A stretch of DNA of 6,666 bases, taken from a virus. Taxonomy: Duplodnaviria > Heunggongvirae > Uroviricota > Caudoviricetes. A model generated the notes under the pieces. That model had not been told where the DNA came from, did no database searches, and saw only the letters and a list, made by a program, of their open reading frames with translations. Positions 448 to 6,666 of this stretch are shown here, piece by piece. The DNA lies in the IMG/VR virus record IMGVR_UViG_2706794694_000002; one strand, written 5' to 3'. A program made the position numbers and the translations under genes. Position 1 is the stretch's first letter. Each line of letters begins with the position of its first letter.

Positions 448-1188
448 TTAACTGGCGGTGACGTTGATTTCTGCAACCGCAGCAAACTCACCATTACCAG
501 ATACGACCGGAATGTTGACCTTGCCTGCAGCAACACCTTTCACGGTGATGGTCATACCACTGACCGACACGGTGGCTTTTGTTTTATCCGCAGACACCGC
601 ACGGAAGCTCTTGTCGGTTGCGCCATCCGGCTGGAATGCCACGGTCAGCGTGGTGCTCTGCCCTTTCACTACGGAAGCACTGGCGGGTGTCACCGTCATG
701 CCGGTCGTCGCCGTCACCGTGCTGCGATCTTCTGCCATCGACGGACGTCCCACATTGGTGACCTTCACCGTGCGGGTAATCACCTCCTTCGCCGTCACCG
801 CCTTACCGATACTGCTGACCCAGCCACGGAACACATCGACCGTGCCGTTCGGGAAGCGGATTTTATAGGCACGGGTATCACCTTCATTAAACCACGCCAG
901 CAGCGCCTGCTGCCCCTGCTCTCCGGGCATCCACGCCAGCGTGAAGCTGGTATCTCCGGCAGATTTCTGCCCCTGCCCGGTCGCAGTCCAGTCTGCATCT
1001 TCATCATCGAGATAGCTGTCGTCATAGGACTCAGCGGTCAGTTCGCCGGGCGTCAGGTCTTTAACTTTTGCCAGACGCGACCAGTCAACGTCTGAAAGCG
1101 GGTTCGCATAAGGGTCACCGCTCCCCTTATAAACCCACAGGGTGGTCCCGGCACCTTTCACCGGCATNNNNNNNNNNNNNNNNNNNNN
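448..1188 (-). CDS. V: Major tail tube protein gpV (lambda-like); true start lies inside the masked block
   Basis: Visible from 1167 down to stop TAA at 450..448: [26 protein letters not shown]...[13 protein letters not shown] (239 aa). Lambda gpV is 246 aa and, as I recall, begins MPVPNPT-MPVKG, so the start is inferred about 21 nt inside the N block (near 1188). The ORF-track entry 448..1590 is a U+V fusion artefact. Confidence 0.85.
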
Positions 1189-1440
1189 NNNNNNNNNNNN
1201 NNNNNNNNNNNNNNNNNNNNNNNNNNNNNNNNNNNNNNNNNNNNNNNNNNNNNNNNNNNNNNNNNNNNNNNNNNNNNNNNNNNNNNNNNNNNNNNNNNNN
1301 NNNNNNNNNNNNNNNNNNNNNNNNNNNNNNNNNNNNNNNNNNNNNNNNNNNNNNNNNNNNNNNNNNNNNNNNNNNNNNNNNNNNNNNNNNNNNNNNNNNN
1401 NNNNNNNNNNNNNNNNNNNNNNNNNNNNNNNNNNNNNNNN
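1168..1440. other. Masked/undetermined sequence (273 N) covering the 3' part of U, the U-V junction and the first codons of V
   Basis: Run of n characters in the sequence. Flanks are U codon 50 and V codon 8 by lambda numbering. Confidence 1.
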
Positions 1441-1590
1441 GCCCGTGTATTCAGCGCCGGTGAGATAAACGGCAATTGCCGGAAAATCTTCCTCATCAAA
1501 AACAGCGGGGCGACCATCAAAAAGCGTCGCCCCGGTGTCATGCTTCTCCAGTGCATCCAGTACGGCTGCACGGAGTTCAGTATGTTTCAT
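1195..1590 (-). CDS. U: Tail terminator/head-tail joining protein gpU (lambda-like); 3' end inside the masked block
   Basis: ATG at 1590..1588, then MKHTELRAAVLDALEKHDTGATLFDGRPAVFDEEDFPAIAVYLTGAEYTG (50 aa visible), recognised as the lambda gpU N-terminus. The end coordinate is extrapolated from the 131-aa lambda length and is not observed. Confidence 0.85.
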
Positions 1591-2541: not shown

Positions 2542-2940
2542 TTATTGCATTCTGGCCAGGCCGCGCTCTGTCATTTCGGCTGCCACACCGGCAGAGACAC
2601 GAAACGCCGTTCCCGGCAGCACAAATGCCACAGGTTTATCCCGCGTGGCGTGAAGTGCATCAGTATGCAGCGTCACCAGTGCCACGACCGTGACCAGTTC
2701 AGCCGTATCCTGAATCACGGTATCCGGCTGCGCTGATACCACCTCATTTTCATGCCCGGTCAGCACATTTTCCCGGCTGAGAGGGGTGTCCTGACCGGCA
2801 GTTTCATCCGTGTCATCAAGCTCTTCTTCCAGCTCTGCCACACGAAGCGCCAGTTCTTCTTTCGTTCCCGTCAAACTGACATCGCGGTTCAATTGCTCAC
2901 CCAGCTCCTGAAGACGGGCAATCAGTTCATCTTTCGTCAT
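2542..2940 (-). CDS. FI: DNA-packaging/head assembly protein gpFI (lambda-like)
   Basis: MTKDELIARLQELGEQLNRDVSLTGTKEELALRVAELEEELDDTDETAGQDT...ERGLARMQ, 132 aa, recognised as lambda gpFI. ATG at 2940..2938 is preceded by GGAGGAG. The ORF-track start at 2979 is an in-frame upstream ATG without an SD, lying inside a hairpin. Confidence 0.95.
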   Translation of the reverse strand: MTKDELIARLQELGEQLNRDVSLTGTKEELALRVAELEEELDDTDETAGQDTPLSRENVLTGHENEVVSAQPDTVIQDTAELVTVVALVTLHTDALHATRDKPVAFVLPGTAFRVSAGVAAEMTERGLARMQ

Positions 2941-2961
2941 GAACTCCTCCACAGAGAGAAA

Positions 2962-2979
2962 ATGGCCCCGAAGGGCCAT
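2962..2979 (-). promoter_or_regulatory. Perfect 7-bp stem with UUCG loop hairpin in the E-FI intergenic mRNA, followed by a U-rich tract; function unassigned (terminator/attenuator-like or stability element)
   Basis: Plus strand atggccc-cgaa-gggccat at 2962..2979. On the minus-strand transcript this is AUGGCCC-UUCG-GGGCCAU followed by UUUUCUCUCU. It starts 3 nt after the E stop codon. Confidence 0.5.
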
Positions 2980-2981
2980 GA

Positions 2982-4000
2982 TTACGCCAGTTGAACGGAC
3001 ACGAACTCATCAGGATCAGCCAGCAGCATCAGCGGTGCTGACTGAATCATGGTGAACTCACGCGCCGGATCGCCGGTGGTCACCCAGTTTTTCGGGTAAC
3101 GGGCAGAAGCGTTAATGCCTTCGCGCTGTGCGTCCGCATCCTGAATGCAGCCATAGGTGCGCAGACCGCGAGCCTGAGTGTTCCCCAGCACCATCGTGTT
3201 GTCCGGCAGGAAGTTCTTTTTGACGCCGTTTTCCACGTACTGTCCGGAATACACGACGATGGCCACATCGCCATACATTCCCTTATAGGACACCGCTTTG
3301 CCCAGGTCTTTTACCGCTGTCTCCAGCTCGGAATGAGAGCCGCGACGGGTATCCAGCTTCTCCTTGNNNNNNNNNNNNNNNNNNNNNNNNNNNNNNNNNN
3401 NNNNNNNNNNNNNNNNNNNNNNNNNNNNNNNNNNNNNNNNNNNNNNNNNNNNNNNNNNNNNNNNNNNNNNNNNNNNNNNNNNNNNNNNNNNNNNNNNNNN
3501 NNNNNNNNNNNNNNNNNNNNNNNNNNNNNNNNNNNNNNNNNNNNNNNNNNNNNNNNNNNNNNNNNNNNNNNNNNNNNNNNNNNNNNNNNNNNNNNNNNNN
3601 NNNNNNNNNNNNNNNNNNNNNNNNNNNNNNNNNNNNNNNNNNNNNNNNNNNNNNNNNNNNNNNNNNNNNNNNNNNNNNNNNNNNNNNNNNNNNNNNNNNN
3701 NNNNNNNNNNNNNNNNNNNNNNNNNNNNNNNNNNNNNNNNNNNNNNNNCACCTCATGCTTGGGTTTGACATATCCCGGCGTAAATTCAGAGGTGGAGCCG
3801 CCACGGGAACGGATAACCTCACCGGAAACAATCGGCGAAACGTACAGCGCCATGTTTACCAGTCCCGGAATTTGTGAGAGATAGACTTTCTCCGTGGTGA
3901 AGGGATAGCTCTCACGGAAAAAGAGACGCAGAAACAGCGGATCAAACTTAAATTTCTGCTCATTTGCCGCCAGCAGCTGGGCGGTTGTGTACATCGACAT
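2982..4000 (-). CDS. E: Major capsid protein gpE (lambda-like), interrupted by masked block 3367-3748
   Basis: N-terminal part from 4000 to 3749: MSMYTTAQLLAANEQKFKFDPLFLRLFFRESYPFTTEKVY...PKHEV (84 aa). C-terminal part from 3365 to 2985: KEKLDTRRGSHSELETAVKDLGKAVSYKGMYGDV...DEFVSVQLA (127 aa), stop TAA at 2984..2982. Both parts are recognised as lambda gpE. The span is 1019 nt against 1026 nt expected for lambda E, so the mask is not length- or frame-preserving. Confidence 0.9.
3367..3748. other. Masked/undetermined sequence (382 N) inside gene E
   Basis: Run of n characters. 382 leaves remainder 1 on division by 3, so the two halves of E fall in different frames in this window. Confidence 1.
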
Positions 4001-4016
4001 AAAAAAATCCCGTAAA

Positions 4017-4038
4017 AAAAGCCACACAGGCGGCCTTT
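4017..4038 (-). promoter_or_regulatory. Strand-specific RNA hairpin (9 bp including two G-U pairs, 4-nt loop) followed by a U7 tract in the D-E intergenic region; terminator-like, function unassigned
   Basis: Minus-strand RNA is AAAGGCCGC-CUGU-GUGGCUUUU followed by UUU, then ACGGGA, then UUUUUUU, then the E AUG. The two wobble pairs are G-U only on the minus-strand transcript; they are A-C mismatches on the other strand. Confidence 0.45.
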
Positions 4039-4055
4039 AGTGATGAAGGGTAAAG

Positions 4056-4397: not shown

Positions 4398-4793
4398 TTA
4401 CACTGGTGTGTTCAGCAAATCGTTAACGGCATCAGATGCCGGGTTACCTGCAGCCAGCGGTGCCGGTGCCCCCTGCATCAGACGATCCAGCGCAGTGTCA
4501 CTGCGCGTCTGTGCACTCTGTGGTGCTGCGGCCAGAATACGGCGGGCCGTTTCCACGGTCATACCGGGGGTTTCGGCCAGCACGCGTGCCTGTTCTTCGC
4601 GTCCGTGAGCCTCCTCACAGTTGAGGATCCCCATAATGCGACTGTTTTCTGCCGCAACCGCTGCGGTGATCTGCGCGTTCACGTCCGGCTGCGCCGCGCT
4701 GGCGTTCTCGCCCTCCGTCGCTTGCACCACGCCAGTAACGTCAGCCTGCGAAGCAGTGGCTGAAACAGTTGTTGATTGAGTCTCTTTGGTCAT
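4398..4793 (-). CDS. Nu3: Scaffolding protein gpNu3, nested in frame within the 3' third of C (shared stop)
   Basis: Internal in-frame ATG at 4793..4791 (MTKETQSTTVSATASQADV...DLLNTPV, 131 aa) is preceded by a strong SD CAGGAGGG with a 3-4-nt spacer. Lambda Nu3 is known to be an in-frame C-terminal segment of C. An alternative in-frame ATG at 5003..5001 (201 aa) has no SD. Confidence 0.7.
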   Translation of the reverse strand: MTKETQSTTVSATASQADVTGVVQATEGENASAAQPDVNAQITAAVAAENSRIMGILNCEEAHGREEQARVLAETPGMTVETARRILAAAPQSAQTRSDTALDRLMQGAPAPLAAGNPASDAVNDLLNTPV

Positions 4794-5717
4794 TCGCCCT
4801 CCTGAGAGACGGGATTTACGTGCATCCAGTGCATCACGCATGACGGTGATCGCATCGGTACTGTTAACAAGTTCATCAGCCAGTCCGGCATCAATGGCCT
4901 CCTGACCGCTGTACACTGCAGCCTCGGTATCCAGCACAGCCTGCACGGACAGGCCGGTATATGCCGACACCTTCTGTGCAAACATCCGGCGGGTTGCATC
5001 CATCCGGGACTGCAGTGTTTCCCGGACGTCATCCGGTAGATGGCTGTAGGGGTTGCCATCCACCTTATGGCTGCCGCTGTAAATCAGCGTGATTTCCACG
5101 CCCTGTTTCTCCAGTGCAGCGCCGTAATTACTGTGAGCCATCATGACGCCGATGGAGCCTGTCCGGGCGGTCTGCGTGACCAGACGCCGGGAGGCGGCAC
5201 TGGCAAGCAGCTGACCTGCGCTGCAGTTCATGTCATTGGCCAGCGCCCATACCGGCTTTATGTCACGCACACGGGCGATGATGTCAGCGCAGTCAAATGC
5301 TCCCGCCACCATTCCGCCCGGTGTGTCCATATCGAGCAGAATGCCGTCCACCATCGGGTCGCTGGCAGCCTGTTGCAGACGGGCGATAATGCCGTTGTAA
5401 CCGGTCATCCCCGAGTACGGCTGCAGCGCCCGCGTCCGGCTGACCAGCGTGCCGGACACCGGCAGCACGGCGATGCCGTTCATTACCTGATAACTGCGGG
5501 CCTGTCGTGGTCCGTCATCATCACCGGATAACGCCAGCGCCGCGGGTGCCTCTCCGGCAGTCAGGCTGTCGCCGGATACTGCATCCGTCAGGCAGCTGAT
5601 CCCAAGCTGGCCTGCAAGCGCACAAAAGAAAACCCGCGCATAGGCGGGTTCAAGCATCAGCGGCTCATTAAAAGCCATGCTGGCAATATGCGGGAGATTA
5701 CGCAGCTCTGCTGTCAC
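4398..5717 (-). CDS. C: Prohead protease/scaffold protein gpC (lambda-like)
   Basis: 439 codons from GTG at 5717..5715 (preceded by GAGGAGGAGAAGA) to TAA at 4400..4398. Translation (V/M)TAELRNLPHIASMAFNEPLMLEPAYARVFF...NDLLNTPV is recognised as lambda gpC. The ORF-track N-terminal extension back to 5852 is the 3' end of B in another frame. Confidence 0.93.
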   Translation of the reverse strand: MTAELRNLPHIASMAFNEPLMLEPAYARVFFCALAGQLGISCLTDAVSGDSLTAGEAPAALALSGDDDGPRQARSYQVMNGIAVLPVSGTLVSRTRALQPYSGMTGYNGIIARLQQAASDPMVDGILLDMDTPGGMVAGAFDCADIIARVRDIKPVWALANDMNCSAGQLLASAASRRLVTQTARTGSIGVMMAHSNYGAALEKQGVEITLIYSGSHKVDGNPYSHLPDDVRETLQSRMDATRRMFAQKVSAYTGLSVQAVLDTEAAVYSGQEAIDAGLADELVNSTDAITVMRDALDARKSRLSGGRMTKETQSTTVSATASQADVTGVVQATEGENASAAQPDVNAQITAAVAAENSRIMGILNCEEAHGREEQARVLAETPGMTVETARRILAAAPQSAQTRSDTALDRLMQGAPAPLAAGNPASDAVNDLLNTPV

Positions 5718-6666
5718 TCTTCTCCTCCTCTGTTGATTGTCGCAGCCCGGATTCAAATGCCGCAGCCGCCCAGGCGGGCGGTTTAAGACCAGCTGCGCGG
5801 CGCTCCATCGTTTCACGGACCTGCTGGGCAAAAATTTCCTGATAGTCGTCACCGCGTTTCGCGCACTCTTTCTCGNNNNNNNNNNNNNNNNNNNNNNNNN
5901 NNNNNNNNNNNNNNNNNNNNNNNNNNNNNNNNNNNNNNNNNNNNNNNNNNNNNNNNNNNNNNNNNNNNNNNNNNNNNNNNNNNNNNNNNNNNNNNNNNNN
6001 NNNNNNNNNNNNNNNNNNNNNNNNNNNNNNNNNNNNNNNNNNNNNNNNNNNNNNNNNNNNNNNNNNNNNNNNNNNNNNNNNNNNNNNNNNNNNNNNNNNN
6101 NNNNNNNNNNNNNNNNNNNNNNNNNNNNNNNNNNNNNNNNNNNNNNNNNNNNNNNNNNNNNNNNNNNNNNNNNNNNNNNNNNNNNTCAAACACGGAGTAG
6201 CCGTTATCCGTGTCCTGAGCCGTCTGCAGGTTCAGTGAGTCCCCCGGCATCAGGTGCGGCACTTTTGCGCCTCCCAGACGGACCGGTGCTGCGGCGTAAT
6301 ACGCGGCAATTTCACCAATCCAGCCCGTCAGCCTTTCCCGCTGCTCCTTACTGTTCGCGCCCAGAATAAAATCCATCGCTGACTGCGTATCCAGCTCACT
6401 TTCAATGGTGGCGGCATACATCGCCTTCACAATGGCGCTCTGCAGCTGCGTGTTCTGCAGCGTGTCGAGCATCTTCATCTGCTCCATTACGCTGTAAAAC
6501 ACATTTGCACCGCGGGTCTGCCCGTCCTCCACGGGTTCAAAAACGTGAATGAACGAGGCGCGCCCGCCGGGTAACTCACGGGGTATCCATGTCCATTTCT
6601 GCGGCATCCAGCCAGGATAGCCGTCCTCGCTGACGTAATATCCCAGCGCCGCACCGCTGTCATTAA
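5698..6666 (-). CDS. B: Portal protein gpB (lambda-like), 5'-partial (start beyond the window end), interrupted by masked block 5876-6185
   Basis: Upstream visible part from 6664 to 6186: NDSGAALGYYVSEDGYPGWMPQKWTWIPRELPGG...QDTDNGYSVF. C-terminal part from 5875 to 5701: EKECAKRGDDYQEIFAQQVRETMERRAAGLKPPAWAAAAFESGLRQSTEEEKSDSRAA, stop TAA at 5700..5698. Both are recognised as lambda gpB. The B stop overlaps the C start by 20 nt. Confidence 0.9.
5876..6185. other. Masked/undetermined sequence (310 N) inside gene B
   Basis: Run of n characters. 310 leaves remainder 1 on division by 3, so the two visible parts of B are in different frames here. Confidence 1.

Follow-up and report, generated by a model that had tools for sequence, protein, structure and literature searches.

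What does a stable hairpin do when it stands directly behind the major capsid gene of a phage late operon, within a transcript that continues into low-copy genes? This question is raised by the 41-nt spacer between genes E and FI, which occupies 2981..2941 on the minus, mRNA-sense strand of the window (the whole 6,666-nt stretch of DNA that was analyzed). Such a structure may end transcription, protect the message lying upstream of it, govern the translation of the next gene, or have no function at all, and these readings make different demands on the stem, on the sequence following it, and on their conservation. We therefore consider the anatomy of the spacer, its history among close and distant relatives, its counterparts in the same operon and in other phages, and then the explanations that may account for it.

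Identity of the window and the flanking genes

A megablast search showed that the window corresponds, in reverse complement, to the head/tail late region of lambda (approximately lambda 3419-10142), spanning genes B', C/Nu3, D, E, FI, FII, Z, U, V, and G'. It was approximately 97.4% identical to lambda, and its identity to E. coli prophages reached 98.5%. Coverage by any single record did not exceed 86% because the window is masked by N in three places (1168-1440, 273 nt; 3367-3748, 382 nt; 5876-6185, 310 nt). The masked total of 965 nt, which corresponds to 14.5% of the window, hides parts of U/V, E, and B, and the lengths of the runs differ from those of their lambda equivalents by 1, 7, and 50 nt. 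False long ORFs arise from these runs, such as that at 448..1590 (380 aa), which extends across U and V. Since the runs of N account for the apparent U-V fusion and for the absence of an intact 341-aa E ORF from the ORF list, a broken E gene, a fusion of U with V, and mosaic blocks of non-lambda origin were all rejected as features of this DNA. The E-FI site itself falls in unmasked sequence.

The cistron upstream of the hairpin is gene E, which encodes the major capsid protein (2982..4000, minus strand) and matches the lambda E annotation. It runs from the AUG at 4000..3998 to the UAA at 2984..2982 and contains the N run at 3367-3748; the C-terminal 127 aa of its product match Pfam PF03864, and D (PF02924) lies upstream of it. 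The cistron downstream is gene FI (2542..2940, minus strand), the translation of which gave a DNA-packaging protein of 132 aa that matches Pfam PF14000 (E = 2.6e-56).

Two observations on database records were made in passing. The record MW057783.1 ("Campylobacter phage CJLB-4") matched the window just as lambda does, with an E protein 100% identical to lambda E, and looks like lambda DNA under a Campylobacter phage name, as judged from its sequence. Fragments 97-100% identical to lambda E were also found on short, low-coverage contigs of Chromatium, Kitasatospora, Paenibacillus, Bradyrhizobium, Prevotella, and other unrelated assemblies (genome contig loci L082-L097, L116-L117, L122, L127-L128, L131-L139, L142, L144-L145, L147, L149, L151-L152, and L155), and these are almost certainly contamination by lambda control DNA.

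Architecture of the E-FI spacer

The coordinates and letters given for the hairpin in the original prediction were confirmed. The element reads AUGGCCC-UUCG-GGGCCAU at 2979..2962 of the minus strand, with a stem of 7 bp, 5 of which are G-C, closing a C(UUCG)G loop. Its free energy of folding is -12.3 kcal/mol, a value reached by only 1 of 200 shuffles (z = -3.3); the fold of the whole spacer had a z of -2.4. The hairpin starts only 2 nt past the E stop, the order being UAA (2984..2982), UC, and the stem from 2979, and the same letters are present in lambda at 7165-7182.

The stem is followed by the pyrimidine-rich single-stranded tail UUUCUCUCUGU (2951..2961, minus strand), which constitutes a weak, C-interrupted U-tract. 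Regarding this tail, the location had been predicted correctly; however, its sequence had been written as UUUUCUCUCU, in which the last U of the stem was counted twice. The tail UUUCUCUCUG holds 5 U among its first 8 nt, interrupted by C, and its lambda counterpart is UGUUUCUCUG; at the positions of the window UUUCUCUCUGU, lambda has UGUUUCUCUGU, such that the tail differs between the two and the hairpin does not. The Shine-Dalgarno sequence (SD) of FI, GGAGGAG (2944..2950, minus strand), comes next and is separated from the FI AUG (2940..2938) by the 3 nt UUC.

The stem had also been proposed to sequester an additional AUG at 2979. This triplet is in frame with FI, where it would open an ORF of 145 aa (2542..2979) instead of 132 aa, but a functional sequestering did not stand up to comparison: many close relatives have GUG at this position, and other relatives have CGG or CUG or lack the triplet altogether. 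Because of this variation, the AUG at 2979 is incidental, being no more than the base of the stem, and we rejected it as a functional feature.

The hairpin was flagged by a consensus terminator scan, a permissive method that returned 8 sites across the whole window against 5.4 +/- 2.4 in shuffles. Perfect inverted repeats of at least 7 bp with a loop of 3-8 nt numbered 2 in the window, with approximately 2.1 expected, and a 7-bp inverted repeat alone is at the chance level for this window. The expectation for an inverted repeat landing within the approximately 150 nt of intergenic sequence was approximately 0.05. Against chance, the comparative evidence described below is decisive, with position and conservation, and not the repeat itself, being what counts. 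A scan of the whole window against Rfam 15 at E <= 1 yielded nothing at 2941-2981 and two sub-threshold chance matches at 4878-4976.

Conservation in close and distant relatives

The close set comprised 104 loci with an E protein at least 96% identical, among which 14 distinct spacer haplotypes were distinguished; the exact haplotype of the window was present in several IMG/VR loci. Across these haplotypes, variation affected 1 of 14 stem positions versus 10 of 27 positions in the rest of the spacer (Fisher p = 0.04), such that, among close relatives, the stem varies less than any other part of the spacer. The sole varying stem position is its first base, which changes from A to G; the pair is kept as G.U, and the AUG becomes GUG. 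Variable sites outside the stem include 4 of the 11 tail positions and three in the SD.

For the distant set, diverse E homologues were aligned and loci were taken from one genome per species, together with annotated phages chosen from the tblastn spread. A stable hairpin was present in the same spacer in all 28 independent E-family capsid lineages examined, which share 25-93% protein identity, and approximately 20 of the stems among these lineages were unrelated in sequence. The hairpins following the capsid stop codon in the 25 tallied lineages and the 3 further ones ranged from approximately -8 to -30 kcal/mol.

In the group with 87-93% capsid identity, from Kluyvera, Enterobacter, Citrobacter, Trabulsiella, Buttiauxella, and others, the core GGCCC-loop-GGGCC, which is common to lambda and N15 as well, was retained in a surrounding spacer that could not be aligned. 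The outer pairs were replaced by G-C, C-G, G.U, or U.G, and the loops included UUCG, UCCG, UGCG, UGUU, UUUC, and AUUC. Among 23 distinct sequences, 94.4% of the cells were paired, versus 35-58% in slid registers, a count that slightly understates the pairing since the Erwinia variant (L114) in the MAFFT set lies one column off the structural register. Two pairs covaried in these sequences, with 6 double-change cells versus none in 500 shuffles, and the outer pairs of the alignable family were seen as A-U/G-U/G-C and as U-A/C-G/U-G. The wobble cells consisted of 8 G.U and 1 U.G, which would be C.A mismatches on the opposite strand.

Below approximately 75% capsid identity, the stem sequences were wholly different, and a strong hairpin was still found in every case. 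Examples from these post-capsid spacers are the stems CAUGCCCC/GGGGCAUG and GCGGGAGC/GCUCCCGU, the hairpins CGGCGGG-GAAA-CCCGCCG and GUCACACC-UUCG-GGUGUGAC, the stem GAUCCGCC/GGCGGGUC of Chi, the hairpin CGCCUGC-UUCG-GCAGGCG of UF_RH7, and a 12-bp stem with a GCGA loop in phiAxp-2. When 50-nt post-stop spacers were taken from 20 representatives, 14 were more stable than 95% of their dinucleotide shuffles (binomial approximately 2e-14), with z having a median of -2.9, and the weakest of the 20 folds were partly artefacts of the 50-nt cut, which truncated hairpins that start later. Tetraloops across the 25 lineages were of the UNCG or GNRA type in 9 of 16 cases, with fewer than 1 expected (p approximately 1e-8), and a U/C-rich tail was found on the mRNA strand only.

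The conservation of base pairing had been named beforehand as the observation on which the interpretation of this hairpin would depend. Pairing was kept in all lineages examined, with compensatory changes, wobble changes, and replacements of whole stems, which shows that purifying selection acts on the hairpin as a structure of the sense-strand RNA. Selection on RNA of the late-mRNA strand is indicated by the G.U pairs that are possible in the sense orientation only, including the one in the D-E hairpin of the window, by the tetraloops that are extra-stable in RNA, and by the strand-specific tail. The position behind E-family capsid genes is conserved even where no sequence similarity remains.

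Other hairpins of the late operon

A scan of the lambda late operon showed that every spacer of 40-65 nt holds a terminator-like hairpin, namely those of D-E (6080-6134, 55 nt; a 9-bp stem and U7), E-FI (7161-7201, 41 nt), I-J (15445-15504, 60 nt), J-lom (18904-18964, 61 nt), and lom-orf401 (19586-19649, 64 nt); the other junctions are overlapping or no longer than 15 nt. The L-K "spacer" (14128-14275, 148 nt) is a separate case with a very stable multi-hairpin fold of -61.5 kcal/mol. The D-E, I-J, J-lom, and lom-orf401 hairpins resemble that of E-FI in architecture, strand, and residence in a long spacer of a tightly packed operon, but have better U-tracts (U6-U7 directly past the stem), whereas the E-FI hairpin has the weakest U-tract of the series and the sole UUCG loop.

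The D-E spacer of the window (4001-4055) contains the companion hairpin AAAGGCCGC-CUGU-GUGGCUUU followed by a U7 run (4017..4038, minus strand), which is terminator-like in the canonical manner. It stands directly after D and 16 nt before the E start, and shows one G.U in the window where lambda has G-C. This hairpin is kept in most lambda-like lineages, but not in lytic Chi-like phages, in which the decoration-capsid junction is tight. The capsid cistron of lambda-like phages is thus bracketed by two hairpins.

Two further observations concern this part of the operon. The stretch that separates the D-E hairpin from the capsid AUG (UUUUUUUACGGGAAAAAUCUAUG and its variants, 20-25 nt ahead of the start) is strikingly conserved across genera, and this conservation (L107, L113, L158, and others) persists where the rest of the spacer differs, which suggests that translation of the capsid gene is initiated in a constrained, A/U-rich region. 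The other is a terminator-like hairpin, GAACCCGC-CUAUGC-GCGGGUUU followed by UCUUUUGU (5630-5651, minus strand; -12.5 kcal/mol, z -2.75), which is located inside the coding sequence of gene C, approximately 47 nt past the B stop, and is the same in lambda (4484-4505).

Similar elements in other systems

The closest counterpart was found in phage N15 (AF064539.1), in which a stem-loop at 7053-7073 separates gene 8 (major head) from gene 9 (the FI homologue) and is annotated as a "putative rho-indep. transcription terminator". The N15 capsid protein is 90% identical to lambda E, the position is homologous, and a C/U-rich tail and an SD follow. The two stems are nearly the same (GUGGCCC-AUUC-GGGCCAC in N15 versus AUGGCCC-UUCG-GGGCCAU in the window), although the N15 loop is AUUC and not UUCG, its outer pair is G-C and not A-U, and its annotation is a prediction only. 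N15 also has the decoration-capsid companion hairpin, and both of its stem-loops are annotated as putative rho-independent terminators. No annotation is present at the E-FI site in the lambda records J02459 and NC_001416. With a similar stem at the N15-type position between E-family and FI-family genes, the hairpin of the window is regarded as a homologous element.

A second class of known elements consists of intercistronic hairpins that stabilize mRNA, such as the REP elements in malE-malF and the hairpins of the puf operon. C(UUCG)G hairpins are also said to have been described in T4 intercistronic regions by Tuerk and colleagues in 1988. The E-FI hairpin resembles these examples as a stable stem-loop located 3' of the more abundant cistron, with an extra-stable UUCG tetraloop and an expected segmental protection against 3' exonucleases; it differs from REP in that it neither has the REP sequence nor belongs to a family of repeated elements.

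In T7, capsid gene 10 is immediately followed by Tphi, the single terminator for the phage polymerase, and RNA abundance is the highest over the capsid gene and then falls (PMC6938266). The likeness consists of a hairpin that adjoins the end of the major capsid gene within a long transcription unit of structural genes. Nevertheless, Tphi acts on T7 RNA polymerase, is experimentally established, and has no sequence relationship to the E-FI hairpin, whereas lambda uses the host polymerase, which is made resistant to terminators by Q. A site after the coat-protein module has also been predicted in the P22-like phage L, in which a terminator ends the procapsid module inside the late operon (PMC8022706). 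Phage L shares with lambda a lambdoid late operon with a single promoter and a Q-type antiterminator; however, its capsid is of the P22 family without sequence homology, the feature is likewise only predicted, and the roles of intra-operon terminators were described as unknown (PMC8022706).

Discussion

The explanation that we tentatively favor, at somewhat short of even confidence, is that the E-FI element is a terminator-type hairpin read through by Q-modified polymerase, the main role of which in lytic growth is that of a barrier to 3' exonucleases that stabilizes the D-E segment of the mRNA; this mechanism is an inference. The hairpin would be transcribed within the single late mRNA, between E, the most heavily expressed head gene, and the low-copy FI. 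During lytic growth, Q-modified RNA polymerase would pass through it, and it would be a poor terminator in any case with its interrupted U-tract and a stem only 2 nt past a busy stop codon. After cleavage of the mRNA downstream, the hairpin would stop 3'-to-5' exonucleases, and the D-E capsid segment would then outlast the FI-FII-Z-U segment, which may help to keep capsid mRNA in excess. In the case of polymerase without the Q modification, a modest fraction of transcripts would be terminated at this site. What was found accords with the class of 3'-stabilizing hairpins, i.e., a stable stem-loop in the spacer 3' of the more abundant cistron, the base pairing of which is kept by selection.

Differential functional stability of late mRNAs was reportedly described by Ray and Pearson in the 1970s. 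Against the favored explanation, translation-initiation rates are said to account for the relative expression of the lambda late genes, as put forward by Sampson, Hendrix, Huang, and Casjens in PNAS in 1988, which would leave little for the hairpin to explain. As a further counterpoint, strong polarity at E-FI would be costly, as highly expressed genes such as V are located downstream. The expectation that the hairpin raises capsid output relative to the downstream genes, which formed part of the original prediction, is only an analogy, for which T7 Tphi may serve as the model. The lambda RIL-seq/RNA-seq study did not single out the E-FI site, and the literature searched contained nothing specific on the mapping of lambda late RNA 3' ends at this site and no explicit mention of the E-FI hairpin.

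A more far-reaching form of this explanation treats the hairpin as a near-universal RNA element that brackets the cistron of E-family capsid genes independently of termination. Together with the upstream hairpin, it would define a long-lived processed capsid mRNA, and this segmental stability, next to translation initiation, would have a substantial share in setting the stoichiometry of the capsid in lambda and its relatives, with the U-tract, where present, being secondary. We hold this form to be quite unlikely.

Partial intrinsic termination as the main activity is possible, but on the whole unlikely. It would either lower the transcription of FI and the later genes or stop only polymerase unmodified by Q, thereby shielding the late genes from spurious transcription in the lysogen; exactly these two roles have been proposed for intra-operon terminators in the study on phage L (PMC8022706), and T7 Tphi provides a working example. 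The anatomy is terminator-like, with a match in the consensus scan and a stem that is G+C-rich, on the late-mRNA strand, and downstream of a stop codon, and the homologous N15 site carries the terminator annotation described above. Many enterobacterial relatives have a very good U-tract after the hairpin, as in L154, where GGGCCGUU is followed by UUUUUUCU; canonical U-tracts were found past the homologous hairpin in L154, L111, L105, L118, L124, and L125, and termination may be the activity selected in these relatives.

In the window and in lambda, the tracts are interrupted (UUUCUCU and UGUUUCU, respectively), and that at E-FI is clearly weaker than the U7 of the D-E hairpin. The consensus reported for strong terminators is GC(U)7RU, and the HUB model places GC at -11/-10 and RU at -2/-1 (preprint 10.64898/2026.05.29.728758). 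On inspection, the E-FI site did not fit this consensus, and the HUB dinucleotides were not found: the stem ends in AU and not GC, CU occupies -2/-1 when -11/-10 is set at the end of the stem, and the only RU of the tail, the GU at 2952..2951, gives UU at -11/-10. The description of the site as a weak intrinsic terminator or a 3' stabilizing hairpin was a fair one, given a good stem and an interrupted U-tract. Among the 25 tallied lineages, 11 show 5 or more U within the 8 nt past the stem, and 9 keep the hairpin with no more than 3 U, including those from enterobacterial Trabulsiella (L123) and Buttiauxella (L126) as well as Chi. Since the hairpin is universal and the U-tract is restricted to 11 of 25 lineages, the conserved element is an RNA hairpin and not a complete terminator, and its conservation in lineages without a U-tract points to a role in RNA stability or translation, not in termination.

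Two properties of lytic growth also weigh against termination. Q-modified polymerase of lambda reads through terminators across the late operon, as is well established. In addition, given a stem 2 nt past the E stop, a terminating ribosome should cover its 5' arm, as inferred from the known ribosome footprint, and would thus occlude it. Because of the interrupted U-tract, the mismatch to the consensus, occlusion by the ribosome, and Q, little termination would be expected at E-FI during lytic growth, and the conserved activity would therefore need only the hairpin.

A hairpin that is universal in the absence of a universal U-tract, with a stop codon immediately on one side and the SD of the following gene on the other, may also insulate or regulate the translation of FI. 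Such a hairpin would block ribosome sliding and re-initiation after E, while pairing of the tail with the FI SD would lower FI translation, which is compatible with the translational control of lambda late-gene ratios reportedly found by Sampson and colleagues. A UUUCUCU/GGAGGAG helix (2944-2961, minus strand) of approximately -5 kcal/mol in the window and -4 kcal/mol in lambda would occlude the ribosome-binding site. This helix is weak, however, its register shifts between lambda and the window without clear covariation, some haplotypes, e.g., GGAUGAG and GGAGUAG, break it, and in relatives such as L103, the tract abuts the SD and leaves no room for a loop. As a conserved feature, we rejected this second helix as unproven, in view of the register shifts and of the haplotypes in which it is broken. 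Furthermore, the same type of hairpin follows D, and yet the next gene, E, is very highly expressed. An insulating or regulatory function accordingly has little chance of being the main explanation.

Scarcely credible is the processing of the 3' end of the E message into a stable, Hfq-type 3'UTR-derived sRNA that ends in the hairpin. Hfq-dependent sRNAs end in terminator-like hairpins, and lambda encodes such sRNAs at terminators, e.g., PreS/LPR1 at tL2a. However, the U-tail is poor for Hfq binding, no Rfam family matched, and the letters preceding the hairpin are constrained because they encode E. In the lambda RIL-seq study, the RNAs reported are limited to PreS/LPR1, LPR2, and 6S RNA, with none at E-FI, and the locus tags of E, FI, and D that were searched for in its supplements gave no entries. 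The hairpin was thus rejected as the 3' end of a lambda sRNA, the sRNAs detected by RIL-seq being located at tL2a and near 6S RNA, and the features expected of an sRNA were not found at this site. Equally hard to credit is a chance inverted repeat without a function or a DNA-level element for recombination at a module boundary: although a window of this length should hold 1-2 perfect 7-bp inverted repeats by chance and the site lies at the boundary between head-shell and head-completion genes, the conservation of position in 28 of 28 lineages with unrelated stems, the covariation, the sense-only G.U pairs, the enrichment of RNA-stable tetraloops, and a stem that varies least within the spacer effectively refute this reading.

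The feature itself is already known, being the same as that in reference lambda and having a homologous element in N15 that was annotated decades ago, and a hairpin behind the capsid gene is a recognized kind of intra-operon, terminator-like structure. What is mildly new is the comparative result, in which the hairpin is universal across the sampled E capsid family, with stable tetraloops enriched and the U-tract dispensable. The way in which the lambda late transcript gives rise to unequal protein levels has been discussed since the 1970s. As the E-FI hairpin sits in a non-coding spacer of the best-studied phage, mutants in which the stem is broken and then restored are easy to construct. Should the relative lifetime or amount of capsid mRNA indeed depend on the hairpin, this structure would be part of how a single 26-kb late transcript gives unequal levels of its proteins.
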